Part shown: piece after piece, positions 1,359 to 23,746 of the stretch
Layout of the letters: each line of letters opens with the position of its first letter
Position numbering within the stretch: position 1 is the stretch's first letter
Assembly (NCBI GenBank): GCA_965224465.1
Contig: OZ245049.1
Span: forward strand, 2,550,001 to 2,582,000
Length of the DNA: 32,000 nt
Reading direction: 5' to 3'
Source: Flavobacteriaceae bacterium
GTDB taxonomy: Bacteria > Bacteroidota > Bacteroidia > Flavobacteriales > Flavobacteriaceae
Notes under the pieces: model-generated
What the model saw: the letters and a program-made list of their open reading frames with translations, nothing else
What the model was told of the DNA's origin: nothing
Databases searched by the model: none
Program-made: the position numbers and the translations under genes

Positions 1359-1612
1359 ATTAAAAATATAATTAAGTTAAACCTACTCATTGCTGGCTTT
1401 TCGGTTTCCGCCAATTTTTACTGCAGTAGTATTGTTTAACAAATAAATAATATTGTTATATAAATTCCAAAAATGTTTTCTTGAAATTTATAAATACAAA
1501 CATGATATTCATAAATTTCAAGAATAACAATAACACTCTAACAACTTGCTTGTTAGCTTATTACATCTTTGAATTAAAACAACTATATTTACGGAGAACA
1601 TTTTATAAAACC

Positions 1613-3847
1613 ATGCGGAAACAACGGAACCCCTATCAATTTTTAAGAACTTATTGCTTAAGAACCCCTCTTTTAGCCCTGAATATCTTAGATGATGTAT
1701 TTGGAAATAGACGGATTGATAAAAAAGCCTTAAGAACCTACTGGAATGATTCAGTAATTAAAGAAGCATTATTTTTAGCCTCTGCGGATTTACACCAACA
1801 ACTAAATCTGCTGTTTTTGGACCGCATAGAAAATACAAAAAAAGAGGAACGGCTGGTGCATAGTTTTTTAAAATACCTCCTTAGAGCTTCCACAAGGTGT
1901 ACTCCTTTTGGATTATTTGCGGGGATATCTATTGGGACCTTTGATACACATACAGCCATTCACATAGCTACCATAAATAACCATCGTAGAATTACGCAAT
2001 TAGATAGTAACTATATCGCGTCACTTTCCAAGCATTTATCTAACAATGCAGTTATAAAAAAACAATTATTATTTTATCCAAACACGTCTTTGTATAGACT
2101 TGGAGAACAATTCCGATATATAGAATATCAATTAACCGATAACAAACGTTCCTATAGCCTTGAAGCTGTGCAAAACAACGATTACCTTTCCCTATTACTT
2201 AGCCTTTCTAAAAATGGAGCGACCATTAATCAATTAGCAAAAAATCTTGTAAATAAGGAGATCTCTTTGGAAGATGCCACAGCTTATATACAACTCTTAA
2301 TAAGCAATCAAATTTTAGTGAGTTCCTTAGAATTGAATGTTACGGGCGATGACATGCTTTCTTGTATACTGAACGTACTTTCCAAGTTACATCACACAGA
2401 AAACATGGTTGCTAGACTCAAACATTTACAAAATCAATTAGAAAATTTAGACAAAAGACTTGGGAACACACCTAAAAATTACAAGAACATTCTCGAAACC
2501 CTAAAAAAAATACATGTCCCTTTTGAATCAAAAAATCTATTTCAAACAGATTTAAAGATATGCGCCCCCACAAACACATTGAACCAAAAACATGGATATA
2601 CACTTCTGAAATTAGTGCCCTTATTAAATAAACTTACTCCTTATATTCCAAATAAGAATTTAGAAAACTTCAAGAAAGCATTCACAAAACGCTATGAGCA
2701 GCAAGAAGTCCCCTTAATGCAACTGCTCGATATAGAATCCGGCATTGGATATATCCAACAAAGTACCATTTCCGACACGACTCCATTTCTGGAAGACATT
2801 CGTCCAAGACATAAAAACGACTTTGAAATAAACACCACCTACACTTATTCTAAATCCGACGAAATAATTAATAATAAACTGATTAAAACCCTAAAGAACA
2901 AGGAATATATCTTGGAGTTAATTGATGCCGATTTTGAGGAACTAGCATCTGACTGGAAATATGGATCAGATACTTTGTCTGCTTTCGTAGAAATAGTATA
3001 CATAAACAATGTAGAAACGTTGAGCGTAAAAGGTATTTATGAAGGAGCAGGGAATTTAATTGCACGCTTTGGTCACCTAGACACGCATTTATTAAAACAC
3101 ATTCAAGACATCACGGACAAAGAGCAACAAATGAATCCAAATTCCTTATTAACTGAAATTGTTCACCTTCCGGAAGACAGAACAGGAAACATCTTAAAAA
3201 GACCACATATAAGGAGTTACGAAATTCCGTATTTAGCAACATCAAACCTTCCAAAATCACAGCAAGTAGATTTAAAGGACATTGTTGTGTCTATAAAAAA
3301 CAATCACGTTGTATTGAGGTCAACGATTTTGAATAAAATAATCACTCCAAAATTAACCAATGCTCATAATTTCACCTCAAACTCGTTACCTGTCTATCAA
3401 TTTTTATGTGATTTACAATCGCAAAACACAAAACAGCAATTAGGATTTAACTGGCATCCATCAGTGAAAAAATATTCATTTTTACCAAGGGTACACTATA
3501 AAAATACAATTTTATCAAAAGCCCGATGGTATATTTCTCTTGAAAACATTCAGTTATTTATGAAATACGCCAAAAATGATCATAAATTACTAGCACAAAT
3601 TAATCGTTGGAAAACATCAAATGGTGCTCCGAAATTACTTGTTTTAATAGAAGGTGACAACACACTATTGATTCATTTAGAAAATTTAGAAAGTATTAAG
3701 TTATTTTTAAATATCATAAAAAGAAAAAAATTCTGTATACTTGAAGAATATTTATTTGAAGACAAAGTTGTTGTTAACAGCAATAACAAACGATTTACAA
3801 ATGAATGTATTATTGCACTTTACAATCAACAAAAACTAAAGCTGTAA
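1613..3847 (+). CDS. Lantibiotic dehydratase, LanB N-terminal (glutamylation) part of a split LanB
   Basis: ORF-track ORF 1481-3847. The likely start is the ATG at 1613 (MRKQRNPYQFLRTYCLRTPLL...), which matches the usual LanB N-terminus. The ~745-aa size, the RASTRCTPFGLFAG motif and the downstream SpaB_C partner fit Lant_dehydr_N-type proteins. Confidence 0.8.
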   Translation: MRKQRNPYQFLRTYCLRTPLLALNILDDVFGNRRIDKKALRTYWNDSVIKEALFLASADLHQQLNLLFLDRIENTKKEERLVHSFLKYLLRASTRCTPFGLFAGISIGTFDTHTAIHIATINNHRRITQLDSNYIASLSKHLSNNAVIKKQLLFYPNTSLYRLGEQFRYIEYQLTDNKRSYSLEAVQNNDYLSLLLSLSKNGATINQLAKNLVNKEISLEDATAYIQLLISNQILVSSLELNVTGDDMLSCILNVLSKLHHTENMVARLKHLQNQLENLDKRLGNTPKNYKNILETLKKIHVPFESKNLFQTDLKICAPTNTLNQKHGYTLLKLVPLLNKLTPYIPNKNLENFKKAFTKRYEQQEVPLMQLLDIESGIGYIQQSTISDTTPFLEDIRPRHKNDFEINTTYTYSKSDEIINNKLIKTLKNKEYILELIDADFEELASDWKYGSDTLSAFVEIVYINNVETLSVKGIYEGAGNLIARFGHLDTHLLKHIQDITDKEQQMNPNSLLTEIVHLPEDRTGNILKRPHIRSYEIPYLATSNLPKSQQVDLKDIVVSIKNNHVVLRSTILNKIITPKLTNAHNFTSNSLPVYQFLCDLQSQNTKQQLGFNWHPSVKKYSFLPRVHYKNTILSKARWYISLENIQLFMKYAKNDHKLLAQINRWKTSNGAPKLLVLIEGDNTLLIHLENLESIKLFLNIIKRKKFCILEEYLFEDKVVVNSNNKRFTNECIIALYNQQKLKL

Positions 3848-3955
3848 ACCAATAATACAACCATTAAAGATTTAGTTCCCCGTTATAAATAATAAAGTGA
3901 TCTGCCTTTACTGAGTATATATAGGTAAGACCCATTAATAAAAAAACGGGGGTAC

Positions 3956-4903
3956 ATGAACCATCTATATAAAGAGCGTCTGACACGCAAGAAAACACCC
4001 CATTGGGATGTTCCGTGTGAACGGAAAAAAAACACAGAACACACACAAAAAAAACGCACATTTATTATAGGGGAAGAGTGGCTTTATTATAAGCTATACT
4101 GCGGGGTAAAAACGGCTGACCTACTATTAACACGTGTAATAAAGCCTTTAACCGAACAATTACTAGAAGAAAAACGTATAGACCAATGGTTTTTTATCCG
4201 TTATTCAGATCCCGAACCTCATCTGAGAATTCGATTTCATTGTAATGATATCGCTGCTATTGGTAATATCATTAACTCCATCAAAGGCAGTATAGAATCT
4301 TATGTAAACAGCGGTATGATATGGAAAGTTCAGATCGACACCTATCAAAGAGAAATAGAGCGCTATGGAACCAACATGATTGTTAAATCAGAGTTTTTAT
4401 TTTATATAGACAGTAAAACTTGCCTCAACGCTTTAAGCCTTATAGATGATGATGAACTGCTTTTTTTATTTGCATTACGTATAATTGATAGTATCCTACA
4501 TATATTCGAATTAAGTGATCAAGAAAAAATAAGATTCACGAAGAACAATTTGAATCAGTTTAAAAAGGAAGTTGGATCTAGTAAAGATTTAAGCAAACAA
4601 CTATACACGAAGCATCAAGGATTAAAAACTAGAATAATAGCATTTATGAGCATGCAAACTCATGAAGAATATGCCTCATTAATTGTTCTTTTTAACGAAT
4701 ATGAAAAGAAACTAGATTATATAAAAGAAGCATGGAAGACGGAAAACATAGCCTTAAATTCATCAATGGAATATTTAATTTCAGATTATATCCACATGAC
4801 TGTAAATAGGATTTTCAGAGATAAACAACGACTTCATGAACTTGTTTGTTATGATAATTTGCATCGTTTTTATAATTATAAATTAGCAACCAATGAAAAA
4901 TAA
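3956..4903 (+). CDS. SpaB_C / thiopeptide-type bacteriocin biosynthesis domain protein (glutamate-elimination part of the split LanB)
   Basis: 315-aa ORF containing WLYYKLYCG...DQWFFIRYSDPEPHLRIRFH, the hallmark of the LanB C-terminal/TIGR03891-type domain. It has an unusual ~35-aa basic N-terminal extension. Confidence 0.75.
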   Translation: MNHLYKERLTRKKTPHWDVPCERKKNTEHTQKKRTFIIGEEWLYYKLYCGVKTADLLLTRVIKPLTEQLLEEKRIDQWFFIRYSDPEPHLRIRFHCNDIAAIGNIINSIKGSIESYVNSGMIWKVQIDTYQREIERYGTNMIVKSEFLFYIDSKTCLNALSLIDDDELLFLFALRIIDSILHIFELSDQEKIRFTKNNLNQFKKEVGSSKDLSKQLYTKHQGLKTRIIAFMSMQTHEEYASLIVLFNEYEKKLDYIKEAWKTENIALNSSMEYLISDYIHMTVNRIFRDKQRLHELVCYDNLHRFYNYKLATNEK

Positions 4904-6590
4904 TTACATGAAATATTATTTTATCTGTGTCTTGTATTTTTGTACAGCATTAATTTACAGTCAAAATAATATAGATTTTTTTTCGAAACCAATCGATAGC
5001 ATTGAGAAAATATTTATAAATCTCGACGAGTCTGAGAAAATAAAACTATCTAGTAACTATTTAAAAAAAGCCAAACATAACAACAACCAACTAAAAATAT
5101 GTAACGGCTACTTTCTAAAATCACTTGCTCATTCGCATACTGAAAAAGCAATACAATTTGCAGACAGTTTAATATATGTAGCCCAAAAGTTAAAAAACAA
5201 CCACATTATAGCAAAAGGGCACTTACAAAAAGGGATACAATTATACTACCAAGCAGAGTATAAACAAGCTTTAGACCAATACCTTTTGGCTAAAAATCAT
5301 TATTCTCAAAACAACGATGCATTTGAAATACTCAGAATAAGGCATTACGTCGCATTATTAAAAAATACCTCAGGTCAAGAAAAAGAAGCATTAAACATAT
5401 TCAAGTTAAATATGTCATTTTTCAAGAAGAACCTTAATAACAGAAAAATATATCCAAATCAATATTTTAAGTCTTTGTTTGCATTAGCAGATTCATACCA
5501 TAGAAACAAATTATTAGACTCCTCACAAATGATGAACCTTAAAGGATTAAACCAAAGCTATGAATTCGACAATAGCTTATACCCTCATTTTTTAATTTCA
5601 TATGGTGCAACAAGAATTTCAAGTAAAGAAGTTAATTTTGGTATTGATAGCCTTTTGAAAGCTGTGAATCTAATTTCAAACAAAAAAAAATCTATTTGTG
5701 GTTTGTATGCTATTATAAATGAAGGTTATGAAATGGCTAATAAGCAAAACTTAGCCATTCTTTACTTAAAAAAAATAGATTCTATATATCAGAAAAATCC
5801 AAACGTTATTTTTCATGCTAAAAATGCTAACAAGAAATTATTCGACCATTATAAATTAAATAACCTACAAAAAGAACAATTAGAAACCATCAATAAAATA
5901 TTAGCCATTGACAGTATTATTCAGATTAAACACTCCATGCTAAGTAAACAAATAGTTGAAAAATATGATATCCCTCAGCTTTTATCAGAAAAAGAGAAAC
6001 TTATTTATTCTCTAAAAAATGAAAATATTTTCAGTAAAAAAATGATTTTCATTTTTATCATTTTAAGTACTTCCCTACTTCTTGCTTTAGGTATTTATAT
6101 AAGACGGAATGTTATATATAAAAAACGATTTAAGAATTTAATGAATCAAACAACAAACAATAACTCCATTGTAAAGATTGATATTATTGATTCTCAGAGA
6201 ATTGCTATTATTGGTGTTTCTAAGAAAATTATCGAGGACGTTCTATATAAATTAGAAATATTTGAAAACTCAAATAGATTTATTAAAAGATACACACTAA
6301 GTTCTCTGGCAAAAGAATTAAAAACAAATAGTTCATATCTATCTAATATAATTAATTCTAAAAAAAATGAAAATTTCTCAAATTATTTAAATAATTTGAG
6401 AATACACTATGCAATTGAAAAATTAAAAAATGATAAAAAATTTAGGTCATACACTATAAAAGCAATTGCAAAAGAAGTGGGGTTTAATACTTCTCAATCA
6501 TTTTCGAACGCATTTTACAAAAACACGGGACTATTCCCTTCTTTTTTCATAAAACAACTATCTAGCTCTTACATAGATGATTACAATTAG
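4893..6590 (+). CDS. Signal peptide + TPR-like repeats + single TM + C-terminal AraC/XylS-type HTH regulator
   Basis: N-terminal hydrophobic signal (MKYYFICVLYFCTALIYSQ; alternative start at 4908). TM segment IFIFIILSTSLLLALGIYI. C-terminal SLAKELKTNSSYLSNIIN...IKAIAKEVGFNTSQSFSNAFYKNTGLFPS is a typical HTH_18/AraC double helix-turn-helix. Its start overlaps the upstream stop. Confidence 0.7.
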   Translation: MKNNYMKYYFICVLYFCTALIYSQNNIDFFSKPIDSIEKIFINLDESEKIKLSSNYLKKAKHNNNQLKICNGYFLKSLAHSHTEKAIQFADSLIYVAQKLKNNHIIAKGHLQKGIQLYYQAEYKQALDQYLLAKNHYSQNNDAFEILRIRHYVALLKNTSGQEKEALNIFKLNMSFFKKNLNNRKIYPNQYFKSLFALADSYHRNKLLDSSQMMNLKGLNQSYEFDNSLYPHFLISYGATRISSKEVNFGIDSLLKAVNLISNKKKSICGLYAIINEGYEMANKQNLAILYLKKIDSIYQKNPNVIFHAKNANKKLFDHYKLNNLQKEQLETINKILAIDSIIQIKHSMLSKQIVEKYDIPQLLSEKEKLIYSLKNENIFSKKMIFIFIILSTSLLLALGIYIRRNVIYKKRFKNLMNQTTNNNSIVKIDIIDSQRIAIIGVSKKIIEDVLYKLEIFENSNRFIKRYTLSSLAKELKTNSSYLSNIINSKKNENFSNYLNNLRIHYAIEKLKNDKKFRSYTIKAIAKEVGFNTSQSFSNAFYKNTGLFPSFFIKQLSSSYIDDYN

Positions 6591-6592
6591 AT

Positions 6593-6626
6593 TTACATGT
6601 TGAAATTTATAAATCTCAACATGTAA
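6593..6626 (+). promoter_or_regulatory. Perfect 11-bp inverted repeat between the regulator gene and the acidic precursor gene (terminator or operator)
   Basis: TTACATGTTGA (6593-6603) and TCAACATGTAA (6616-6626) are separated by 12 nt. The repeat starts 3 nt after the regulator stop codon, has no T-tract after it, and lies 56 nt upstream of the ATG at 6682. Confidence 0.4.
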
Positions 6627-6681
6627 GAAACTAATAACTCTTATTAAAACAGTATATTTTCAAAAATTTAAAAACATAATT

Positions 6682-6834
6682 ATGAAAAAAGAAAATAAAG
6701 ACAACGCATTGAGCTTTGAAAAATTTCAAATTTCAAAAATTAAGAGTCCAAAATATATTATTGGAGGTAATATTGGTCAAGATGATGATGATAATGATGA
6801 TGGCGGCGGCGGCGGTGTAACAGATACCCAATAG
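6682..6834 (+). CDS. Double-glycine-leader precursor peptide, 50 aa (MKKENKDNALSFEKFQISKIKSPKYIIGG | NIGQDDDDNDDGGGGGVTDTQ)
   Basis: Hand translation; not in the ORF track. It has a Bacteroidetes-style leader (MKK...LSFEKFQISKIK...IIGG). It sits between the regulator and the S9 peptidase and is followed directly by a strong hairpin. Confidence 0.6.
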   Translation: MKKENKDNALSFEKFQISKIKSPKYIIGGNIGQDDDDNDDGGGGGVTDTQ

Positions 6835-6849
6835 AATAAAACACTCCTT

Positions 6850-6892
6850 ATAAATCATCAAGATCTATATAATTTTGATGATTTATTTTTAA
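6850..6892 (+). terminator. Rho-independent terminator/attenuator after the acidic precursor gene
   Basis: Perfect 12-bp stem ATAAATCATCAA (6850-6861) / TTGATGATTTAT (6875-6886) with a 13-nt loop, followed by TTTTAAATT. It lies 24 nt upstream of the S9 peptidase start. Confidence 0.6.
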
Positions 6893-6915
6893 ATTCCGTA
6901 ACACCATAACAAAAG

Positions 6916-9090
6916 ATGAGCAGTAAAATTTATTTGTTAATATGTATACTTTTTTTTATGAATTGTAAAAAAAATGATTTCAAAATAGAATATCCTAGAA
7001 TAAACAAAAAAGAGGTTCAAGAATCATTCTTTGGAAAAAAAATTACAGATTCCTATAGAAATATAGAAAACATGGAAGACCCAACTATTGTAGAATGGTT
7101 TAAAAATGAAACAAAACTTTCTGACAGTTTGATGAATTTAATCGCTGGAAAAAAAACTTTTTTAGAAAAACTAACCAACGATCTAGAAAATAATAACTAT
7201 AAAATTTCTAAGCTAAAAATCACAAAAAACAACACTTATGTTTATTTAAAAAAAGCAAAAGGAGATCCGTATTCAAAACTTTATTATCGCAAAGGGTTTT
7301 CTGGAAAAGAGACATTACTCTTCGACCCCACTAGCTATAAATTCACCATTAATTATTTACAACCAAGTTGGGATGCTTCTAAAGTTGCAATTGGAATTAG
7401 TAAGAACGACCAAGAATTTTCAATATTTAGAATCGTTGAATTGGAATCCGAAAAACTACTTGAAGATCAAATTCCTAATGGATACCCTAATGGTTTTGGC
7501 GGTATAGAATGGCTTCCAGACAACTCAGGTTTTATTTATACTTACGTGCCTATAATTGATCCGAAAAAAAAGAATTATATGTTTAATGCTAAATCGATCA
7601 TCTATAAAATAGGTACATCCATAAAAGAAACAGTCACCATTTTTTCAAAAAAAAACAACCCTACTATAAACTTTAAAGAAGAAAGTATTCCGATAATTTA
7701 CCTTAGTGATGACACATCTAAAATTATACTTGGAATTAACATTACAGGAACGTCAAGATATAGAGATACGTATTTTACACGGACTACTAATTTAGAAGCT
7801 ACTTCAGTAAACTGGAATTTTTATTATGGTAAAGAAGAAAAGATTGCTGCATTTAGTTTAAGTAATTCTTTTTTTTACTATCGTACTTCCAAAAACGCCT
7901 CTACTTTTAAAATTTGCAAAACGCCTATATTAAAGCCCGATTTCAAAAACCCAATACTAGTTGTAGACCAAGATTCTACTGCCATTATTTCCGATTTTAC
8001 CGTAACAAACCAAGGCGTTTTTTATGTCAAATCTAAAAATGGTGTAGAGGCAACACTCTACCATTTTAATGAAGAAACAGGAGAACATACCAAAATGAAA
8101 CTCCCTAAGGCATCAGGATACATCAATGTAAAATCCAAAGGCTACCAATTTAATGACTTATGGATTGAAACTAAGGGATGGACAAGTAAAAAAAAACGCT
8201 ATAAGTACAATATTGGAAAATCTATATTTGAAGAAGAAAACTTAAATCCAATAAAAGAAAATCCTATTTTAGAAGATGTAATTGTTGAAGAAATTGAAAT
8301 CCCTTCACATGATGGAATTATGGTTCCGCTATCTATTATCTATAAAAAAGGAATTAAAAAAGACAAGAGCAACCGCTTACTTATCAATGCCTATGGTTCC
8401 TATAAATGGTCTAACGCTCCTTATATGTACCCATACCTAGTCCATTGGGTGAATAAAGGTGGTATTTATGCAATAGCCCACGTGAGAGGAGGCGGTGAAA
8501 AAGGAGATGCGTGGCATAAAGCCGGATTTAAAACAACAAAACCGAATACATGGAAAGATTTAATTGCCTGTACAGAGTATTTTATCGACAATAACTATGT
8601 GAACAAAAATAAAATAGTAGCTTGGGGTGCAAGTGCTGGTGGTGTTTGTATAGGAAGAGCCATTACAGAACGACCTGACTTATTTTCTGCAGCCATCATT
8701 CGTGTCGGTATTTTGAATACCTTAAGGAGAGAATTTGGAGCAAATGGAGCAAATAACACTAGAGAGTATGGCACTATTAAAGATTCTATTGAATTTAAGG
8801 GATTATATGAAATGGATGCCTACCATCATATAAAAAACAAAGTCCGTTACCCTGCTGTATTATTAACCGCAGGATTAAATGATTCAAGAGTTCCTGCATG
8901 GCAACCAGCAAAATTTGCGGCACGATTACAAGAAGCGACCGCCTCAAACAAACCTATATTATTAAATATAGACTTTGATGGAGGGCATGGCTTTGAAGCA
9001 TCTGACAATAAAAAAAATGAAGAACTGGCTAAAATAATGTCTTTCGCCTTTTGGCAAACAGGGCATCCAGAATTCCAATTGAAAGATTAA
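6916..9090 (+). CDS. S9-family prolyl oligopeptidase, predicted lipoprotein
   Basis: Lipoprotein-type signal MSSKIYLLICILFFMNC. Beta-propeller-sized N-terminal region. The C-terminal alpha/beta hydrolase has the nucleophile motif GASAGG, then LNDSRV (Asp) and DGGHGF (His), in the order typical of POP/S9A. Confidence 0.8.
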   Translation: MSSKIYLLICILFFMNCKKNDFKIEYPRINKKEVQESFFGKKITDSYRNIENMEDPTIVEWFKNETKLSDSLMNLIAGKKTFLEKLTNDLENNNYKISKLKITKNNTYVYLKKAKGDPYSKLYYRKGFSGKETLLFDPTSYKFTINYLQPSWDASKVAIGISKNDQEFSIFRIVELESEKLLEDQIPNGYPNGFGGIEWLPDNSGFIYTYVPIIDPKKKNYMFNAKSIIYKIGTSIKETVTIFSKKNNPTINFKEESIPIIYLSDDTSKIILGINITGTSRYRDTYFTRTTNLEATSVNWNFYYGKEEKIAAFSLSNSFFYYRTSKNASTFKICKTPILKPDFKNPILVVDQDSTAIISDFTVTNQGVFYVKSKNGVEATLYHFNEETGEHTKMKLPKASGYINVKSKGYQFNDLWIETKGWTSKKKRYKYNIGKSIFEEENLNPIKENPILEDVIVEEIEIPSHDGIMVPLSIIYKKGIKKDKSNRLLINAYGSYKWSNAPYMYPYLVHWVNKGGIYAIAHVRGGGEKGDAWHKAGFKTTKPNTWKDLIACTEYFIDNNYVNKNKIVAWGASAGGVCIGRAITERPDLFSAAIIRVGILNTLRREFGANGANNTREYGTIKDSIEFKGLYEMDAYHHIKNKVRYPAVLLTAGLNDSRVPAWQPAKFAARLQEATASNKPILLNIDFDGGHGFEASDNKKNEELAKIMSFAFWQTGHPEFQLKD

Positions 9091-9097
9091 AAAAAAT

Positions 9098-10086
9098 ATG
9101 ACGAGATTTCCTTTTTACCATCAAAACGATGCCAAAGATTGCGGTCCTACTTGTTTAAAAATAGTAGCGAAGCATTATAAAAAGGTAATTGCATTACAAG
9201 AACTTCGTGCCTTGAGTGAAACTACCAGGGCAGGAAGTAGCTTGTTAGGATTGAGTGATGCAGCCGAAAAATTAGGGTTTAGAAGTTTAGGTGTTCAGAT
9301 AACACTTGATAAATTAGAAGAGGCACCTTTACCCTGTGTATTGCATTGGAACAAAAATCATTATATTGTTCTCTATAAAATTAAAAAAGGAATCTACTAC
9401 GTGTCAGATCCTGCACACGGAATACTCAATTATTCAAAAAAGGAATTTTTAAGACATTGGATCGGATTAAACGCTACTAATGTTACTGAAGAAGGCGTTG
9501 TTTTACTACTAGAGCCAAGTCCTTCATTTTATCAGAATAAATTTGATAAAGAAAAGAAGAAAGTAGGATTCTCCATGCTTCTCAACTATGTCATCCCCTA
9601 TAAAAAATTTATTTGGCAACTTATAATTGGTTTATTTGCAGCGAGTATATTACAGCTTATTTTTCCTTTTCTTACGCAAAGCGTGGTGGATGTAGGAATT
9701 AAAAATCAAGACATTCATTTTATTTATTTAATTCTGTTTGCACAATTGGCATTATTTGTTGGTAAAACAGCTATTGAAGTGGTGCGTAGTTGGATTTTAT
9801 TGCATTTAAGTACTCGGATTAACATCTCATTAGTCTCTGACTTTTTTATCAAACTAATGAATTTACCCATCGCTTTTTTTGACACTCGAATGACAGGTGA
9901 TATTTTACAACGTATTAATGACCATAAAAGAATTGAACGCATTCTAACTACATCCTCTTTAAGTGTCTTATTTTCTATGATGAACCTTATCGTATTTAGT
10001 ATTGTTTTAGGCTATTATGATATGAGTATTTTCGGAATATTTGTGTTTGGGAGTATCTTTTATTTTCTATGGATACTTTTATTTTT
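9098..10086 (+). pseudogene. Peptidase-C39-domain bacteriocin ABC exporter, 5' part (C39 + start of the TMD), truncated by IS insertion
   Basis: C39 catalytic motifs QNDAKDCGPTCL (Cys) and HWNKNHYIVLY (His), followed by TM helices. From 10087 the reading frame runs into IS sequence (…WILLFL-LNSSHKRNF*). Confidence 0.85.
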
Positions 10087-11211
10087 GCTGAATTCAAGTC
10101 ACAAACGCAACTTTTAGTTAAATAATAATTGTTCCATTACAAATATAGGGTTTTGATATTTATGTCTCTTCCTAGGTCTGTTATTTAATTTTGTTTCTAC
10201 CTCTTTGATTCTTTGATCTGTTAGGTTTGTAAAGTCACTTCCTTTGGCAAAATATTGTCTAATCAAACCATTTAAATTTTCGTTAGATCCTCTTTCCCAA
10301 GAGTGATATGGATGCGCAAAAAAGTAATCAATACATAAATTTTCTGCAACCTGCTCATGGCCTGCAAATTCTTTTCCATTATCAGCTGTTATAGTATGTA
10401 GATAAGGCTTCCAGTCTTCTAATATTTCATTGATAGCTTTAGTGACAACAACTGCTTCTTTAGAGCTTACTTTTTTCATTTTAAGCATTCCAGAAGCTCT
10501 ATCATTTACGGTAAGTATGGCTTGATTATGGTTTTTACCTATGATTAAATCGACCTCTAAATCTCCAAATCGATTTCTTTGTTCAACAACTTCAGGGCGT
10601 TGTTCTATACTAATACGATTCTTTATAACCCCTCTAGAATCCTTTGATGAGCCACGTTTTCTATATCTCCTTCCCTGTCTGCGAAGGTGTGTATGTAAAT
10701 CACCATCATTCCTCTTGTCTTCCCTAATATGCTGATATATACGCTCAATAGACACCGTTTCTTTACCTTGTTTTTTTAGGACACCAACTACTTGCTCAGG
10801 ACTATAATCGTCTCGCAATAACAACTCTATTGCTTGTTGAATATCTTCTGTAAAGCGTTTTCTTTTAGGCTTTTCTTTATGACGTTTAGCATACTTTTTT
10901 TGGGCTAATTCATGCTTGTAAACTCCATTTCTTTTGTCTGAATTACGCTTAATCTCTTTGCTAATAACAGACTTGTCTTTTCCTATAGCAGCTGCTATCT
11001 CAACCTGTTTATAACCTTGTTTTAACATGCAACAAATTGTGTATCTTTGCGCTTGGGTGATGTGTTTCATACAACTTCTTTTTTCGAGATTTGAGACCGT
11101 AAGATACATATCCATCAAGACAAGAAAGGTAGGTTTTCCTACTTTTCTGTTTTGAAAATATAACCATCATAGAATCAAATCGAAAAGTTGCGTTTATTAG
11201 TTGAATTTAAG
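10087..11211 (-). mobile_element. IS30-family insertion sequence, copy 1 (~1125 bp)
   Basis: It holds a transposase ORF identical to the one at 14266-15270. It has imperfect ~30-bp terminal inverted repeats (GCTGAATTCAAGTCACAAACGCAACTTTTAG at 10087; complement of CTTAAATTCAACTAATAAACGCAACTTTTCG ending at 11211). Deleting 10087-11211 rejoins the ABC gene in frame (…WILLFL|LKKRGDLDYKRF…). Confidence 0.85.
10114..11070 (-). CDS. IS30-family DDE transposase
   Basis: N-terminal HTH (MKHITQAQRYTICCMLKQGYKQVEIAAAIGKDKSVISKEIKRN). DDE core: DLEVDLIIG ... TITADNGKEF ... ERGSNENLNGLIRQY. The track ORF extends to 11118, but the MKHITQAQRY start at 11070 is more typical. Confidence 0.85.
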   Translation of the reverse strand: MKHITQAQRYTICCMLKQGYKQVEIAAAIGKDKSVISKEIKRNSDKRNGVYKHELAQKKYAKRHKEKPKRKRFTEDIQQAIELLLRDDYSPEQVVGVLKKQGKETVSIERIYQHIREDKRNDGDLHTHLRRQGRRYRKRGSSKDSRGVIKNRISIEQRPEVVEQRNRFGDLEVDLIIGKNHNQAILTVNDRASGMLKMKKVSSKEAVVVTKAINEILEDWKPYLHTITADNGKEFAGHEQVAENLCIDYFFAHPYHSWERGSNENLNGLIRQYFAKGSDFTNLTDQRIKEVETKLNNRPRKRHKYQNPIFVMEQLLFN

Positions 11212-12415
11212 ATTAAAAAAGAGAGGGGATCTAGACTATAAACGATTTTCTGAGGTAAGTCAAGAACAAAGTAAAGTGATAGAGCTAATTAACGGCATGC
11301 AAGAAATAAAATTACACAATGCAGAAAAACAAAAACGTTGGGGTTGGGAATTTATTCAAGCACGCTTATTTAAAGTTTCCATGGAAGGGCTCGCCTTGGA
11401 GCAATACCAAAATGTAGGTTCCAATTTTATCAATGAAATTAAAAATATTTTAATCACCGTATTGTCTGCAAAACTGGTGATTGATGGAGAAATAACCTTA
11501 GGAATGATGTTAGCTATTAGCTATATAGTAGGGCAATTAAACGCCCCTATCTCACAATTAATAAATTTTGTAAGAGAAGTGCAAGATGCCAAAATATCAC
11601 TGGAAAGGCTCTCGGAAATCCACCTCAAAGAAGACGAGGAATCAATATACCAAGAACGTATCACAACAGTTGAAGACAACAAAGGTCTATACATTTCCAA
11701 CCTGTCATTCCGCTATCTAGGTTCTGAGCAACGAGTACTAAAAAACTTAAACCTACAAATCCCTTCAAATAAAATAACTGCTATTGTTGGCACTAGCGGT
11801 AGTGGAAAAACAACCTTAATGAAACTCTTATTGAAATTTTATGACCCTAACCAGGGAAGTATAAAATTAGGGAATCAAGATTTAAAAAATATTTCACAAA
11901 AAACATGGAGAAACGAATGCGGAGTGGTACTACAAGAAGGATACATTTTTAATGACACTATCGCAAATAACATAGCGCTAGGTGAAGACTTTGTGGACAA
12001 ATTGAAACTAGAACATGCCGTTGATGTAGCCAACATAAAATCATTTATTGAAACACTTCCTTTATCGTACAATACCAAAATAGGAATGGAAGGAGTTGGC
12101 TTAAGTACAGGTCAAAAACAACGTTTACTAATTGCACGTGCCGTATATAAAAATCCAAATTTTTTATTTTTTGATGAAGCAACAAGTGCCTTGGACGCCA
12201 ATAATGAAAAAATAATCATGGAAAAATTGAATCACTTTTTCAAAAATAAAACAGTCATCGTTATTGCCCATAGATTGAGTACTGTAAAAAATGCAGATCA
12301 AATTGTAGTTTTAGATGAAGGAAACATTGTAGAAGTAGGAAATCACACTTCACTTGTTAAGAAAAAGGGGAGCTATTACCATTTAGTTAAGAATCAATTG
12401 GAACTGGGGAGTTAA
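11212..12415 (+). pseudogene. Bacteriocin ABC exporter, 3' part (end of the TMD + nucleotide-binding domain)
   Basis: Continues the 9098 frame after IS removal. Walker A GTSGSGKTT, signature LSTGQKQR, Walker B LFFDEATSALD, H-loop IAHRLS. The first 'MNL' of the track ORF is a TTG codon within IS-end sequence, not a real start. Confidence 0.85.
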
Positions 12416-12651
12416 CATGGATTACGAAAGGATTAATTACGAAGTGTTAAATTACGAATCTGAATGCGTGTTTTAAATGACAGTACTTATATTTTATATA
12501 AAAAATAGCTCAATGTCATAAATTATTACGGTACTGCAGCCTTCAAAAAACATTAACATTTGAAATTCTAAATTAAATAATAACTATATTTAAAAAAAGA
12601 GTTACGGATTTGCTTTATTGATAGTTATCTAATGTAGAAAATTAATTGCCG

Positions 12652-12928
12652 AGAAAAAGGAATTTCTACTGTCCAAACAATTATTGCGTAGTGGAACATC
12701 CATAGGAGCAAATATAGAAGAAGCTATTGGAGCTATAAGCACAAAAGACTTCCTTTTGAAACTTTCTATTTCTTATAAAGAAGCAAGAGAAACCCATTAT
12801 TGGTTACGTCTTTTAAAAGAAAGTAGTTATACCTCCGAAAAAGAAGGATCCTATTAATAACACAGTGTGAAGAATTATTGCGAATTATTGGTCGTCTACA
12901 AAAAACAATGAAATCTCGTAATTCGTAA
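12652..12928 (+). pseudogene. Four-helix-bundle protein (23S rRNA intervening-sequence protein family) remnant, 5'-truncated and frameshifted
   Basis: Hand translation gives LIAEKKEFLLSKQLLRSGTSIGANIEEAIGAISTKDFLLKLSISYKEARETHYWLRLLKESSYTSEKEGSY*. After a frame change it continues ITQCEELLRIIGRLQKTMKSRNS*. The RSGTSIGANI.EA / KEA.ET.YWL motifs are characteristic. There is no start codon, and an in-frame stop lies just upstream at 12640-12642. Confidence 0.6.
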
Positions 12929-12946
12929 TTCCAAATTAAGAAAAAA

Positions 12947-14172
12947 ATGTCAAATCAGCTAGAAAACATAAAACTACGAAGTGAAGAAGTACAAGAAATT
13001 TTAACAAAAGTACCACATTGGATGATACGTTGGGGTAATGTCTTATTTCTATGTATAATTCTATTGCTTTTACTCATTTCTTGGCTTGTAAAATACCCAG
13101 ATATTATAACTTCTAATGCAATTATAACCACCCATATTCCTCCTCAGAAAATACATGCAAAAACAACTGGTAATCTAGAGGTTATACTCGTAGAAGATTT
13201 AGAGTTACTGCTAAAGAATCAACCTATAGCAATTATTGAGAATACAGCAGATTATAAAGATGTATTTATCCTTAAAGCTATTATTGACACTCTTAAAACA
13301 AGCAATAAAACACTTAGATTTCCTTTTGATAATATGCCCGTTTTGTCCTTAGGACCTATTGAATCTTCCTATGCTATCTTTGAAGGAAACTACCTTCAAT
13401 ATTGTTTAAATCAGGAACTACGCCCCTTTACTAACAAGGCTATAGCGAATAACATATCCATTTTAGAACTCAAGAAGCGCTTACAAAATGTTCAAGCACA
13501 AAAAGGAATTCAATTCACTGAACTCGCATTTAAAAAGAAAGACCTGAGCAGAAATAAATTCCTGTATGACAAAGGTATTATATCCACTCATGCATACGAA
13601 TTAAAACAATTAGAATTTGCACAGTTTAATAGAGAATTTCAAAATCATGAGGCTGTATTATCGCAAATAAGAGAAGCGCTTAGCAATGCAAACAGAACAT
13701 CCAAAGGAGTAGAAATTAATCGTATAATGGAAGAAATGGTATTACATAAAAATGTAGTCCAATCGTTAAATCAGTTAAAAAAAGCAATTAAAGACTGGGA
13801 GTATTTATATGTATTACAACCTAATACCGAAGGTTATGTTGCATTTATAGACATCTGGAGTGCGAATCAATCCGTACAGCAGGGAGACTTAATTTTTTCT
13901 GTTATCCCCTGTAAAAACACTACCTATATTGCAAAACTCAAAACACCATCTCTAAATTATGGCAAAATAAAAATAGGTCAATCTGTACATCTTAAACTTG
14001 ACAATTACCCTGATATAGAATTCGGCGTATTGAATGGCATCGTTAAAAAAATAGGTCAAATACCTAATAAAAATGGACGGTACAATATTGACGTACAGCT
14101 GCCAAAAAAATTGATCACTTCCTATAACAAAGAGATTATATTCAAACACGAAATGACCGCCAAAGCAGAAAT
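12947..14172 (+). pseudogene. HlyD-family secretion adaptor, 5' major part, interrupted near its 3' end by an IS
   Basis: N-terminal TM anchor (WGNVLFLCIILLLLLISWLV), coiled-coil middle region and C-terminal barrel region. After …FKHEMTAKAEI the frame enters IS sequence (LNSTNKRNFSI*). Confidence 0.8.
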
Positions 14173-15297
14173 CTTAAATTCAACTAATAAACGCAACTTT
14201 TCGATTTGATTCTATGATGGTTATATTTTCAAAACAGAAAAGTAGGAAAACCTACCTTTCTTGTCTTGATGGATATGTATCTTACGGTCTCAAATCTCGA
14301 AAAAAGAAGTTGTATGAAACACATCACCCAAGCGCAAAGATACACAATTTGTTGCATGTTAAAACAAGGTTATAAACAGGTTGAGATAGCAGCTGCTATA
14401 GGAAAAGACAAGTCTGTTATTAGCAAAGAGATTAAGCGTAATTCAGACAAAAGAAATGGAGTTTACAAGCATGAATTAGCCCAAAAAAAGTATGCTAAAC
14501 GTCATAAAGAAAAGCCTAAAAGAAAACGCTTTACAGAAGATATTCAACAAGCAATAGAGTTGTTATTGCGAGACGATTATAGTCCTGAGCAAGTAGTTGG
14601 TGTCCTAAAAAAACAAGGTAAAGAAACGGTGTCTATTGAGCGTATATATCAGCATATTAGGGAAGACAAGAGGAATGATGGTGATTTACATACACACCTT
14701 CGCAGACAGGGAAGGAGATATAGAAAACGTGGCTCATCAAAGGATTCTAGAGGGGTTATAAAGAATCGTATTAGTATAGAACAACGCCCTGAAGTTGTTG
14801 AACAAAGAAATCGATTTGGAGATTTAGAGGTCGATTTAATCATAGGTAAAAACCATAATCAAGCCATACTTACCGTAAATGATAGAGCTTCTGGAATGCT
14901 TAAAATGAAAAAAGTAAGCTCTAAAGAAGCAGTTGTTGTCACTAAAGCTATCAATGAAATATTAGAAGACTGGAAGCCTTATCTACATACTATAACAGCT
15001 GATAATGGAAAAGAATTTGCAGGCCATGAGCAGGTTGCAGAAAATTTATGTATTGATTACTTTTTTGCGCATCCATATCACTCTTGGGAAAGAGGATCTA
15101 ACGAAAATTTAAATGGTTTGATTAGACAATATTTTGCCAAAGGAAGTGACTTTACAAACCTAACAGATCAAAGAATCAAAGAGGTAGAAACAAAATTAAA
15201 TAACAGACCTAGGAAGAGACATAAATATCAAAACCCTATATTTGTAATGGAACAATTATTATTTAACTAAAAGTTGCGTTTGTGACTTGAATTCAGC
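14173..15297 (+). mobile_element. IS30-family insertion sequence, copy 2 (~1125 bp), inverted relative to copy 1
   Basis: Same ends and an identical transposase protein as copy 1. It is flanked by AAT (14170-14172) and AAT (15298-15300), a candidate 3-bp target duplication. Confidence 0.85.
14314..15270 (+). CDS. IS30-family DDE transposase (identical to the 10114-11070 copy)
   Basis: The 334-aa track ORFs are identical, and the spot-checked nucleotide stretches at both ends are identical. Confidence 0.85.
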   Translation: MKHITQAQRYTICCMLKQGYKQVEIAAAIGKDKSVISKEIKRNSDKRNGVYKHELAQKKYAKRHKEKPKRKRFTEDIQQAIELLLRDDYSPEQVVGVLKKQGKETVSIERIYQHIREDKRNDGDLHTHLRRQGRRYRKRGSSKDSRGVIKNRISIEQRPEVVEQRNRFGDLEVDLIIGKNHNQAILTVNDRASGMLKMKKVSSKEAVVVTKAINEILEDWKPYLHTITADNGKEFAGHEQVAENLCIDYFFAHPYHSWERGSNENLNGLIRQYFAKGSDFTNLTDQRIKEVETKLNNRPRKRHKYQNPIFVMEQLLFN

Positions 15298-15367
15298 AAT
15301 AATTACAGAAGACTTGCGACTTATAGATCGCTTTTTTTATCGATTGAAAAAGAGCCTGCGTAATTGA
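15298..15367 (+). pseudogene. HlyD adaptor 3' remnant displaced by IS copy 2
   Basis: Hand translation from 15299 gives IITEDLRLIDRFFYRLKKSLRN*. This is the typical C-terminal tail of bacteriocin-type HlyD proteins and is in frame with …MTAKAEI once the IS is removed. Confidence 0.7.
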
Positions 15368-15392
15368 TTTTTCAAACAACTGTTTTATAGCA

Positions 15393-15592
15393 ATTACAAT
15401 CCAAAACAATCAATATAGATAAGTTCTTTTACGTTCTAGCCTTGTTAAAAAATAGAACGATACTTCGGCAAAGACTCCGTAAGCAAATTAATGGCTAACC
15501 ATCCATTTTTCGCCTAGCTATCCGCCCAGTCGGAGAACAAACAAAAAACAATTTCATCTCTAAACCATCAATAAAAATGTATTTGGTATAAC
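15393..15592. repeat. Intergenic repeat family, copy R1 (long form; boundaries approximate)
   Basis: TTACAATCCAAAACAATCAATATAGATAAG...TTTTACGTTCTAGCC...AATAGAACGATA...CCATTTTTCGCCTAGCTAT...TTTCATCTCTAAACC...GTATTTGGTATAAC. It shares ordered blocks with the copies at 22889, 23638 and 24668. Confidence 0.6.
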
Positions 15593-17729: not shown

Positions 17730-20510
17730 TTACTTAATTTTGAACGCCTGTGATTTTCCCGTAATGCTCGTTCGGATAGCATAGGTTCCTTTTGGCAAAT
17801 AGTACACGTTGTTCTTTGCCTTTTCTATATGTATATCCTTCGCATTGAAATAACGTTTCCCGTATTTTTTATCAAAAGAAACATCATACGTTATATAATT
17901 CAACCCTTTTTCCATTGAAGCATCAAACGTTTGTATTTTAGTTCCATCCTCTGAAAGCACTTCAAAAGTACACTCCCCTTTTTCTTTGCTAAAAAATACA
18001 ATATCTATCGTTGGCAAATTTGGATTAAGCCATTTAGACCAAGACATACCCCAACCCGTAGCATGGCGCTTATCTTTAATTTTAAACAAGGTAAATACAT
18101 TGTTTTTCACCTTATTAACCTGTTGTAAAGCTGCAATATTAGTTTTGTAGATAGAGCGACCGTGGGTAGCAACCAATAAATCTTTAGCCTCGGTTTGTAA
18201 AACCAAATCATGAACAGCAACCTTAGGAAGTCCTCCTTGAAAAATATTCCAATTTAGCCCTTGATCAAAAGATACATGCACCCCTCTATCGTTTCCCACA
18301 TACACTATATTTTCATCGGAATCACCCTCTATAATTACGTTGATTGGTGATGCAGGCAAACCCTCTGAAATAGAAGTCCAAGTAGCTCCAAAATCCTCAC
18401 TTTTATACAACATCGCTTTAAAATCATCATTTCGATACCCGTTCAACGCCACATACAATCGCTTTTGTTGATGTTGCGAAGCGATAACGCGTGACACCCA
18501 AAAACCAGCAGGTAAATCCTCAGAAACTTTAGTCCAAGTAGTTCCTCCATCCAGCGTTACATGAATCAATCCATCATCACTTCCTACAATCAGTTGCCCA
18601 AATTTAAACGGACTTTCACTAATACTTGTCAATGTTCCAAAGGCAACATTTCCTTTTTTTCCTCCAAGTGTTAAATCGCCAGAAATATCCGAAAAATGAT
18701 CCCCTTTATCAAAAGATCGATGCAGTTTATTAGATCCTAAATACAAGATATCCTGATTGTGTTTTGACAATAAAATAGGTGTTTGCCAATTGAAACGAAG
18801 TGCTGTTTCCCCCAAATTATGTTTCGGTTGAATATACTTTTTTTTTCCTGTTTTCAAATTAAAACGATAGTAATTCCCAAACTGAAAACCTGTGTACAAA
18901 ACATCCGAATCCCTACGATCGATTTCTATTTTCATCCCATCACCGCCAATTATAGAAGTATAGGGGTATTTTCCACTTTGATTCCAAGATTTCGATGCTT
19001 TGTAAGTACTGGGACCCTTCCAAACTCCATTATCTTGCAAGCCTCCATAAACATTGTATTTTTTTTCATAATCTACGTTGATCGCATAAAATTGTCCGAC
19101 CGCAGGTTGATTGCATTTAATCCAGCTTTCACCATCGTCATAACTAATGTTTAAGCCTCCATCATTTCCTAAAACTAAATGACGCTTGTTTTTTGGATTT
19201 ATCCACAATGCATGATGATCTACATGCACATTCTCTTTATTTATAGAAACAAAGGTTTTTCCGCCATCTTTTGATTTTAAGATTGGTACTCCTGCCACAT
19301 AAACAGCTTCTGGATCTGTTAGATTTACCGCCACAACAGCAAAATAATATCCATAAGAGAACACCAAATCATCCAAATAATCCACATGAGTTTTAGACCA
19401 AGTAAGCCCTCCATTTATAGATTTGTATAACTCCGCTCCTTTTACGGGCGTGTTAAACAATGCAGCATTGGCATTTTCTAAATACAAGGCAACGTCTTTT
19501 GGTTTAATAGTTCCGTTTTTTACCAAATTTTTGACATTTTGTGAACGGTATTTTTCTTGAAAACCATTGCGTTTTAAAAAGCCATTCAGTTTTTTATCAC
19601 TCAACTTTAAAAATGCGGTTTCCGACATGTTTTTGAAATCACCTTTTTGCAGTCCCTCCGTTTTTTTCTTCTTTTTAGAAGAAACAGATCTGTGTTCTTG
19701 ATTGTCCAATAAAGCATAAATAATAGCATCATTATAAATAGCCAAACCGATACGCCCTACACCATCTCCTGAGGGAAAACCACTTTTATTATGAGTAACA
19801 CGCACCCAAGTATCTCCAAAGTCTACACTTTTATAAATACCCGATTTTGAACCATTCCCAGAAAAACTCCAGGCTTTCCTATTGCGTTCCCATGCGGCGG
19901 CAAATAATATATTTTTATTCTCTGGGCTTTGTACGAGATCAATCACCCCTGTATTTTCATCAATAAACAACGCGTTTTTCCATGTTTTTCCCCCATCCGT
20001 AGTTTTGTAAATACCACGCTCCTTATTCGCAGTGTACAGATGTCCAATAACTCCGACAACTACTTCATCGGGATTTTTATCATTTAAAATAATACGCCCA
20101 ATATGATGCGCATCTGGCAAGCCCATATATTCCCAAGTCTTTCCTTTATCGGTGCTTTTTAACATTCCAATCCCTGCATAAGAAGAGCGAGAGGAATTGT
20201 TTTCTCCTGTTCCTACCCAGATAATATCATTCTTCCAATCTACCGCAATATCTCCAATATTCTGTGTCGGTGCAGTGTCCATAACAGGGCTAAAAGTTGT
20301 CCCATTATTGTCTGAATACCATAATCCACCCGAAGCATACGCCACATACATTTCTGTAGTCTTGGCAGGATTTACGGCAACATCCACAACACGTCCACTC
20401 ATAATAGCAGGCCCAATATTTGTAAATGGAACATTCTTAACAAGGGATTCTTGTCCTTGTAAGCCAATACTTACAACAAGTAATAATAGAGATAAAATGA
20501 GGTTTTTCAT
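17730..20510 (-). CDS. Secreted BNR/Asp-box repeat (sortilin/VPS10-like) protein
   Basis: Signal peptide MKNLILSLLLLVVSIGLQGQ. It has at least 9 S/T-x-D-x-G-x-T-W/F Asp-boxes: STDKGKTW, TTDGGKTW, SVDFGDTW, SINGGLTW, SKDGGKTF, SYDDGESW, TLDGGTTW, SEDFGATW, SFDQGLNW. Confidence 0.75.
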   Translation of the reverse strand: MKNLILSLLLLVVSIGLQGQESLVKNVPFTNIGPAIMSGRVVDVAVNPAKTTEMYVAYASGGLWYSDNNGTTFSPVMDTAPTQNIGDIAVDWKNDIIWVGTGENNSSRSSYAGIGMLKSTDKGKTWEYMGLPDAHHIGRIILNDKNPDEVVVGVIGHLYTANKERGIYKTTDGGKTWKNALFIDENTGVIDLVQSPENKNILFAAAWERNRKAWSFSGNGSKSGIYKSVDFGDTWVRVTHNKSGFPSGDGVGRIGLAIYNDAIIYALLDNQEHRSVSSKKKKKTEGLQKGDFKNMSETAFLKLSDKKLNGFLKRNGFQEKYRSQNVKNLVKNGTIKPKDVALYLENANAALFNTPVKGAELYKSINGGLTWSKTHVDYLDDLVFSYGYYFAVVAVNLTDPEAVYVAGVPILKSKDGGKTFVSINKENVHVDHHALWINPKNKRHLVLGNDGGLNISYDDGESWIKCNQPAVGQFYAINVDYEKKYNVYGGLQDNGVWKGPSTYKASKSWNQSGKYPYTSIIGGDGMKIEIDRRDSDVLYTGFQFGNYYRFNLKTGKKKYIQPKHNLGETALRFNWQTPILLSKHNQDILYLGSNKLHRSFDKGDHFSDISGDLTLGGKKGNVAFGTLTSISESPFKFGQLIVGSDDGLIHVTLDGGTTWTKVSEDLPAGFWVSRVIASQHQQKRLYVALNGYRNDDFKAMLYKSEDFGATWTSISEGLPASPINVIIEGDSDENIVYVGNDRGVHVSFDQGLNWNIFQGGLPKVAVHDLVLQTEAKDLLVATHGRSIYKTNIAALQQVNKVKNNVFTLFKIKDKRHATGWGMSWSKWLNPNLPTIDIVFFSKEKGECTFEVLSEDGTKIQTFDASMEKGLNYITYDVSFDKKYGKRYFNAKDIHIEKAKNNVYYLPKGTYAIRTSITGKSQAFKIK

Positions 20511-20536
20511 AGGGATAGATTTAAGGTGATTTCAAT

Positions 20537-22888: not shown

Positions 22889-22957
22889 ATTACAATCCAA
22901 AATAACCGATATAAATAGTTGTTTACTAAACCGTCACTTGGAAGTGTATTTGGCATC
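22889..22957. repeat. Intergenic repeat family, copy R2 (short form)
   Basis: ATTACAATCCAAAATAACCGATATAAATAGTT...CTAAACCGTCACTTGGAAGTGTATTTGGCATC. Both conserved end blocks are present without the internal segment. Confidence 0.6.
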
Positions 22958-23628: not shown

Positions 23629-23637
23629 CACCAACTA

Positions 23638-23746
23638 GAATCCAAAATGACCGATATAAATAGTTTGTTTTACGTTCTAGCGTTCTTAAAAAACAAAAAA
23701 TAATTCTATTTCTAAACCTTCACTTGGAAAATTAATTGGTATAACA
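23638..23746. repeat. Intergenic repeat family, copy R3 (intermediate form)
   Basis: GAATCCAAAATGACCGATATAAATAGTTTGTTTTACGTTCTAGCGTT...TTCTATTTCTAAACCTTCACTTGGAAAATTAATTGGTATAAC. Confidence 0.6.

Follow-up and report, generated by a model that had tools for sequence, protein, structure and literature searches.

Two identical copies of one insertion sequence (IS) interrupt both genes of a peptide export operon in a Flavobacteriaceae bacterium (GenBank assembly GCA_965224465.1). The window analysed here is the whole stretch of 32,000 nucleotides from 2,550,001 to 2,582,000 of contig OZ245049.1, forward strand, and all coordinates below count from its first letter. One copy lies in the gene for a C39-type ATP-binding cassette (ABC) exporter and the other in the gene for its HlyD-type adaptor. 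A preliminary description of this region, made from the sequence alone, had taken the two hits to be independent, and this holds: the copies, some 4.1 kb from each other, were inserted separately as simple insertions, as shown by a target duplication particular to each and by the collinearity of the gene halves on either side. Taken together, the evidence makes it very probable that two simple insertions of an IS30-family element have inactivated the ABC-HlyD export operon.

The insertion sequence and its ends

Base-by-base extension from an internal seed identified two inverted repeat arms that match exactly over 1130 bp (10085-11214 against the reverse complement of 14170-15299), and past this stretch the flanks of the two copies differ. 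The 1139 nt reported by a repeat search (arms 10076-11214 and 14170-15308) take in nine mismatching flank bases. More than 10 related copies in other genomes served to set the ends of the element; about ten of these, besides the relatives singled out below, are from Polaribacter, Flavicella, Tenacibaculum and other genomes. These relatives all start with CT(T/C)A(A/C)ATTCAA and finish with TTGAATTCAGC, with unrelated flanks outside. The element so delimited is 1125 bp long, with the termini 5'-CTTAAATTCAA...TTGAATTCAGC-3' and terminal inverted repeats of 29 bp, of which 23 positions match. Copy A occupies 10087-11211 on the minus strand, antisense to the ABC gene, and copy B occupies 14173-15297 on the plus strand, in the sense of the HlyD gene. 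The breakpoints read earlier (10086/11212 and 14172/15298) are exactly those of this element. The statement that the two transposases are identical at the protein level turned out to be too modest, as the copies, in opposite orientations, match at every nucleotide.

Each copy carries a single open reading frame (ORF) for a transposase of 318 aa counted from ATG, at 10114-11070 (minus) in copy A and at 14314-15270 (plus) in copy B. The longest ORF starts at an upstream TTG; it extends to 11118 in copy A and codes for 334 aa in copy B. The protein matches NCBIfam NF033563 (IS30 family transposase) with 290.8 bits against a cut-off of 80, over profile positions 1-267 of 267, and its N-terminus matches the Pfam helix-turn-helix (HTH) family HTH_38 with 34.5 bits against a cut-off of 27. 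The score for Pfam rve is 20, under the cut-off of 32.6. Residues D174, D230 and E264 form a DD(33)E triad, with 55 and 33 residues in between, and the second of these spacings is typical of IS30-family enzymes (ISfinder; Mahillon & Chandler). Length, single ORF, inverted repeats and target duplication all fall within what is expected of the IS30 family (1.0-1.7 kb, one ORF, 20-30 bp and 2-3 bp, respectively). The G+C content of the element is 33.7% and that of the window 32.9%. Judged by its sequence, the element is an unnamed new member of the IS30 family, IS4351-like, belonging to a clade of marine Bacteroidota. Copy-out/paste-in transposition through a circular or dimer intermediate, the mechanism of the family, would by analogy have produced both insertions.

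Target duplications

Copy B is flanked by a perfect 3-bp duplication, AAT at 14170-14172 and AAT at 15298-15300. For copy A, the left-hand trinucleotide is TTT (10084-10086), in the context of an ancestral Phe codon, and the right-hand one is ATT (11212-11214), one base off the left. The codon struck by copy A encodes Phe (F-L-K-K-R) in 12 out of 12 intact ABC homologues; therefore TTT is the ancestral state, and it would be the right-hand duplicate of copy A that has been altered. We assign 3-bp duplications to the clade because perfect 3-bp direct repeats flank 30 out of the 43 aligned copies of a related element in an Ekhidna genome.

The identity between the copies runs 3 nt past the left end of the IS and 2 nt past its right end, because both insertions hit a near-identical trinucleotide (AAA/AAT and AAT). 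This sharing is not significant alone, since a match at two or more of three bases has a chance of ~0.19 at the base composition of the window. Because the identity runs past the ends, an element of 1126 bp that duplicated 2 bp (AA) at each insertion was also considered. It explains the 1130-bp identity and fits the window equally, and it was demoted on the relatives, which show CTTAAATTC...CAGC ends and 3-bp duplications. Under either model (1125 + 3 or 1126 + 2), 1128 bp are to be removed from each gene.

The interrupted exporter gene

The first gene, on the plus strand, codes for a peptidase-containing ABC transporter (PCAT). Its 5' part (9098-10086) encodes the C39 domain with Cys15 (DCGPTC at residue 14) and transmembrane segments TM1-TM4; the corresponding ORF (9098-10117) enters the IS, takes up nine foreign codons and stops at 10117 with the tail ...WILLFLLNSSHKRNF*. 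On this fragment, PF03412 (Peptidase_C39) matches residues 4-124 and PF00664 (ABC_membrane) residues 175-330, the latter over profile positions 4-162 of 274. The 3' part (11215-12415) supplies the cytoplasmic extension of TM4, TM5-6 and the nucleotide-binding domain (NBD), and its ORF (11201-12415) matches PF00664 over profile positions 171-273, together with PF00005 (ABC_tran). Copy A sits at codon 330, at the cytoplasmic end of TM4.

Removal of 10087-11214 (1128 bp, the IS and one duplication) yields a single ORF of 729 aa. The reconstructed protein aligns in one stretch each with PCAT1 (4RY2; residues 6-722) and with ComA (8HF7; residues 8-722), and Walker A, the signature, Walker B and the H-loop are intact at residues 522, 626, 646 and 680. 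Against TIGR01193 it scores 426.8 for residues 9-722 on profile positions 1-707 of 708, below the cut-off of 523.85. It is gap-free at the junction with the 12 intact homologues (...WIxxFLKKRxDLDYK...), which come from Winogradskyella, Mesoflavibacter, Corallibacter, Flavivirga, Hanstruepera and Polaribacter and are 78-81% identical to it. These matches put the window among marine Flavobacteriaceae, but their narrow identity range does not tell the genera apart. The full PCAT architecture, i.e. C39 domain with its Cys, ABC_membrane domain and ATPase motifs, is found on the reconstruction only, the polypeptide being split in the genome as it is.

The interrupted adaptor gene

The HlyD-type gene follows on the same strand, with codons 1-409 of 430 at 12947-14172. 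Its ORF runs into copy B, where it gains 11 foreign codons and stops at 14209 with the tail ...MTAKAEILNSTNKRNFSI. The stranded last 21 codons and the stop (ITEDLRLIDRFFYRLKKSLRN) lie at 15301-15367, as located by gap-free alignment to two intact homologues. Removing 14173-15300 (1128 bp) restores a protein of 430 aa, which is colinear across the junction with the adaptors of Winogradskyella sp. R77965 and of a Mesoflavibacter metagenome-assembled genome (MAG) (n = 2; ...AEI(I/V)TEDLRLI.RFFY...). The HlyD-type assignment draws on PF13437 (40.2, cut-off 22.2) and, for the reconstruction, on TIGR01843, which matches residues 27-425 on profile positions 4-412 of 422 with 81.8, under its cut-off of 208.65. 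In both related loci the orthologues match AprE-type helical-hairpin (HH) and beta-barrel Pfam families, and they always lie 3' of the ABC gene.

That the gene halves rejoin in frame once the IS is taken out had been claimed before, and the two uninterrupted ORFs, gap-free against their homologues, bear this out. The ABC junction peptide then given ('…WILLFL|LKKRG…', ancestral WILLFLKKRG) nevertheless has an extra Leu, because the duplicated target codon had been left in.

Consequences for export

The preliminary description held that both export and leader cleavage were knocked out. The split of the ABC gene supports the first part: with TM1-4 parted from TM5-6 and the ATPase, transport would be lost, barring reassembly of the two ABC halves. 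The second part was too strong. The C39 domain is uninterrupted, and peptidase and TM1-4 stay together in one ORF with 330 native residues. In vitro, C39 domains taken from transporters of this type reportedly cleave Gly-Gly (GG) leaders, as in work on ComA and LahT. For the adaptor, the lesion affects the last 21 residues only. Loss of HlyD function after their exchange for 11 IS-encoded ones is nonetheless likely, because the lost segment is highly conserved: T411-E-D-L-R-L-I417 and R419-F-F-Y422 are invariant in comparison with the two homologues.

We suggest the following course of events. The ABC insertion would abolish transport and would probably be polar on the downstream HlyD gene. 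The second insertion, whichever of the two it was, would then have fallen in an already dead operon, where it would be neutral and would not be purged. An operon that is already dead is the simplest reason for which a second hit in the partner gene would be tolerated. GG-leader precursors, for which two candidates are encoded at 1080-1358, might still be made and modified, and possibly cleaved by the membrane-anchored C39 fragment, while they would no longer be exported.

Several points weigh against inactivation by two simple insertions. The duplication of copy A is mismatched at one base, which calls for a point mutation after the insertion or else for a 1126-bp variant of the element that duplicated 2 bp. 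The ORF that begins at TTG 11201, inside the IS end, is in frame with the 3' half of the ABC gene, and a split ABC protein might conceivably reassemble. An HlyD protein lacking the 21 residues might keep activity. Finally, the sequence shows neither the order nor any polarity of the insertions, and neutral accumulation and selection would both fit it.

One event or two, and their age

The 2961 bp between the copies consist of the missing halves of the ABC and HlyD genes in their original orientation and frame, and this arrangement bears directly on how the pair arose. The inverted order of the copies would fit a composite transposon (IS, 3 kb, IS) that inserted as a unit, or a replicative or dimer-mediated inversion that produced the second copy; IS30-family composite transposons do exist, and PMC9927407 describes Tn7511, with ISApl1 copies in different orientations. 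However, the inner segment supplies exactly the halves that the genes on the outer flanks are missing, in the same orientation and frame, and an inversion event would have left this segment inverted. Moreover, the outer flanks, TTT (10084-10086) and AAT (15298-15300), share no duplication, whereas each copy has its own. An origin as a unit or by inversion is thus barely credible. The earlier suggestion that the pair forms a potential composite transposon and inversion substrate can be kept solely in the sense of a formal capacity to invert or to transpose, as the pair did not arrive as a unit.

The same junctions speak to the quality of the assembly. Identical repeats of 1.1 kb are a classic source of misassembly, and in short-read assemblies related copies lie on contigs of 1.1-1.4 kb, so one has to ask whether the assembly collapsed a repeat, or put it in the wrong place, in either gene or in both. 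Such an error is a highly improbable explanation here. The junction pairs are base-precise, excision restores ORFs that are colinear with their homologues, and a misplaced repeat would not create target duplications, while each copy is flanked by a 3-bp duplication. Collapse or misplacement, which had been named as what could overturn the earlier interpretation, is hence not borne out.

Apart from the IS, no stop or frameshift is present in the 3.5 kb of interrupted coding sequence of the two genes. This lack of a second lesion fits a recent origin of the insertions, as had been proposed from the identity of the transposases. However, zero differences in 2 x 1125 bp bound the age only loosely, because gene conversion between the copies would erase differences, and the identity is no pointer to a laboratory timescale.

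Why two close hits

How surprising a second hit so close to the first would be depends on the abundance of the element. For a 3.5-Mb genome, the chance of at least one IS pair within 4.1 kb is 2% with 5 copies, 10% with 10, 36% with 20 and 64% with 30. It might be tempting to see the double hit as adaptive, with loss of peptide secretion being selected (because of its cost, by cheating or in laboratory culture), the IS acting as the mutagen and the second hit reinforcing the first. At low copy number the pair would indeed be unusual (~2% and ~10% for 5 and 10 copies), and the two hits, within 4.1 kb of each other, struck functional partners and left six neighbouring genes of the cluster intact. 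There is also a precedent in Bifidobacterium longum, in which IS30 elements are hyperactive and ~1000 generations in pure culture left 40% of isolates without a lantibiotic region (PMC2430713). On the other hand, one disruption of the ABC gene suffices, so that the second hit comes without added selectable benefit. Relaxed selection after the first hit predicts the same pattern, and at 30 copies 64% of genomes would be expected to have two of them this close. We therefore regard an adaptive double hit as unlikely; positive selection or loss in culture is possible, but superfluous for explaining the pattern.

A further variant is that selection silenced the exporter and the modification genes were retained, the GG-leader peptides now being made intracellularly, either in a new internal role or in a non-secreting cheater, and that the inverted IS pair could flip the 2961-bp NBD/HlyD segment. 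We consider this very unlikely. Searches for close strains found none: exact look-ups of the S9 peptidase, the transposase, an enolase-like protein and the LanB C-domain proteins gave no match. An exact scan with the left end of the IS had no match in species-representative genomes or JGI metagenomes, and one with the 30 nt that immediately precede the insertion in the ABC gene had none in JGI metagenomes.

Another mechanism that could bring two copies together is target preference or local hopping, the IS either having an affinity for these sequences or tending to land close to the copy it came from. According to PMC9927407, citing Kiss et al. 2007, IS30-family elements favour imperfect palindromes with AT-rich arms. 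Both targets in the window are AT-rich and have nearly the same trinucleotide (AAT and AAA in the IS orientation), and in 30 targets reconstructed from the Ekhidna genome A/T-only positions flank the duplication, with some G/C in its centre. A weight matrix built from these 30 targets, however, gives the two sites no better than top-20% and top-47% ranks among all window positions, although a matrix from an element whose transposase is 68% identical makes a weak test for the window IS. Furthermore, among the 47 copies of the Ekhidna genome the closest two are separated by 9980 bp, a wider gap than 99% of random placements give, with no sign of local clustering. This crude target model thus shows no hotspot at either site, contrary to the target preference for the region that had been offered as one possibility, and target preference or local hopping is in our view quite unlikely to account for the pair. 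A neutral second insertion into an operon already inactivated by the first is the simplest reading.

Relatives and known systems

The closest transposases in the databases are 94% identical to that of the window, or 99% when a frameshifted and truncated metagenomic copy is counted. This copy, on an ENA metagenome contig (L003), is 99.3% identical but frameshifted; its flanks show no target duplication, and the neighbouring genes are uninformative. Another locus (L004) holds a 92%-identical copy. The most extensive set comes from an Ekhidna sp. MAG (CBDHDT010000193.1, 4.55 Mb, long-read; loci L008-L062), which contains at least 47 copies of a related IS of 1128 bp with a transposase 67-71% identical to that of the window element. 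Forty-three of these copies could be aligned for ends and duplications, and 30 targets were reconstructed for the matrix. The Ekhidna copies are spaced more evenly than random, with a minimum gap of 9980 bp, and several lack matching duplications, which suggests recombination between copies. In Polaribacter sp. IC066, a contig of 1133 bp (L006, NZ_VORR01000141.1) consists of a related IS with 79% transposase identity and has a coverage of 504.8, suggesting another large expansion of the clade, this time in a cultured isolate. The clade is widespread in marine Bacteroidota.

Among named elements, the closest found is IS4351 of the Bacteroides transposons Tn4351/Tn4400, which is also annotated on Riemerella anatipestifer plasmids. 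Common to both are the family, a transposase with a single HTH and a DDE domain, and Bacteroidota hosts; the window element differs in that its transposase is only 53.7% identical, its length is 1125 bp and its clade is one of marine Flavobacteriaceae/Cytophagia. IS4351 makes 3-bp duplications and can form composite transposons (ISfinder). ISApl1 and IS30 resemble the window element in family, in AT-rich target arms, in short duplications that are sometimes absent or imperfect and in paired copies that bracket DNA, inverted pairs included, as described in PMC9927407. Their duplications are of 2 bp, whereas those of the window element's clade are of 3 bp, and whereas ISApl1 pairs (Tn6330, Tn7511) carry mcr-1, the pair in the window brackets gene debris, with no selectable cargo, and was not mobilised as a unit.

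The case of B. longum DJO10A, in which an IS30-associated lantibiotic region is lost during laboratory growth (PMC2430713), is similar in that an IS30-family element takes part in the loss of production of a ribosomal, antimicrobial-type peptide. There, however, a whole cluster between two IS30 copies is deleted, while the window has two point insertions in the export genes and nothing deleted. The export pair itself resembles PCAT1/ComA-type transporters with an HlyD adaptor in its C39 Cys, its ATPase motifs and the GG-leader peptides nearby, apart from the interruption. Compared with these, the Flavobacteriaceae subfamily to which the window ABC protein belongs is unusually conserved (78-81% across genera).

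The mechanism seen here is, as far as sequence can tell, ordinary: insertional inactivation by an active IS30-family element, a known phenomenon, although the element itself is new. In practical terms, what annotation would present as two 'truncated ABC' ORFs, a 'short HlyD' and two transposases is one broken export operon, and a prediction that this strain secretes the peptide of the cluster would be wrong. The ends, the target duplication and the relatives of an unnamed IS30-family element are now defined, as is its membership of a clade that reaches at least 47 copies in one genome. The finding would bear on an open question only if a genome-wide or population comparison showed that the exporter is hit above chance.

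The surrounding gene cluster

The cluster genes upstream of the exporter (1481 to 9090, plus strand) are all uninterrupted and have full-length Pfam matches, in agreement with the earlier view that the biosynthetic genes, here the LanB-type and S9 peptidase genes, are intact. They comprise a split LanB-type dehydratase (1481-3847 and 3956-4903; PF04738 over 2-648 of 649 and PF14028 over 1-255 of 255), a 565-aa protein with a C-terminal AraC-type HTH (4893-6590; PF12833) and an S9 prolyl oligopeptidase (6916-9090; PF02897 and PF00326). Intact ABC-HlyD pairs adjoin LanB, S9 peptidase and AraC-type genes in Winogradskyella and Mesoflavibacter. The pair is far better conserved across genera than its neighbours, and the surroundings vary between genomes.

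On the minus strand, two tandem small ORFs of 42 and 41 aa (1080-1208 and 1233-1358) encode peptides in which a Gly-Gly leader precedes a highly charged core without Cys (HERPKKEKKKEVKVES and HERPDKKKEKKVETK). Their leaders read …ELSALESQTL(L/K)GG|HERP…, and both cores open with HERP(K/D)K. One of the two has a weak match, below the cut-off (E = 0.0016), to PF14406, 'Bacteroid_pep' (ribosomally synthesized peptide in Bacteroidetes). The two peptides are the likely substrates of the disrupted exporter. At the Mesoflavibacter locus L002, a GG-leader peptide (4895-5038) beside the S9 peptidase also has ERPK. The presence of an S9 prolyl oligopeptidase in both clusters suggests cleavage after the conserved Pro. 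Downstream of the precursor-like ORFs and on their strand, another ORF (3-692, minus) starts at 692 and continues past the left edge of the window. No Pfam family matches it, and it may also belong to the peptide cluster.

LanB clusters that combine GG leaders with C39 proteases, which the cluster in the window resembles, have been described from Bacteroidetes (Walker et al. 2020, doi 10.1101/2020.03.13.990614). Pinensin-type clusters share with the window the split LanB glutamylation/elimination pair, the GG-leader precursors and the C39 exporter. They differ in that the window has no LanC match among the scanned ORFs and no Cys in the candidate cores. The LANC_like profile had no match in the scanned window ORFs of at least 90 aa, three overlapping ones (18783-19154, 20197-20529 and 30981-31403) being outside the scan. 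Of the features of class I lanthipeptide clusters, LanB is thus present, while the window gave no LanC match and the candidate cores hold no Cys; LanC might lie outside the window. A lanthionine product appears unlikely, because LanC has no match in the window and the cores are Cys-free.

Between the two IS copies, the spacer of the ABC and HlyD genes measures 531 bp, against 168 bp in the related locus L001 and 26 bp in Mesoflavibacter L002. It contains a degenerate gene of the PF05635 four-helix-bundle family ('23S rRNA intervening sequence protein') at 12417-12930, plus strand, which covers profile positions 37-89 of 106 only, has an in-frame stop and a frame change, and is bounded on both sides by the inverted repeats AATTACGAAT and ATTCGTAATT. 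This gene looks like the decayed remnant of a small insertion of older date, separate from the IS events though it lies between the copies.

A scan of the window for sigma-70 promoters and terminators stayed at chance level, the consensus not being applicable to Bacteroidota, and an Rfam scan of the window gave no matches. Finally, a modular intergenic repeat with the core ATTACAATCCAAAATAACCRATATAAATAGTTTGTTTTACGTTCTAGCGTTGTTAAAAAA occurs four times on the plus strand of the window (15380-15457, 22889-22920, 23621-23698 and 24656-24733). It has no Rfam match and no copy in the related loci that were fetched. Its copies lie at or just after the 3' ends of the HlyD, M24 aminopeptidase, thioredoxin-like and AraC-type regulator genes, two of them overlapping the last codons, and three fit a 29-nt pattern for which the chance expectation is none.

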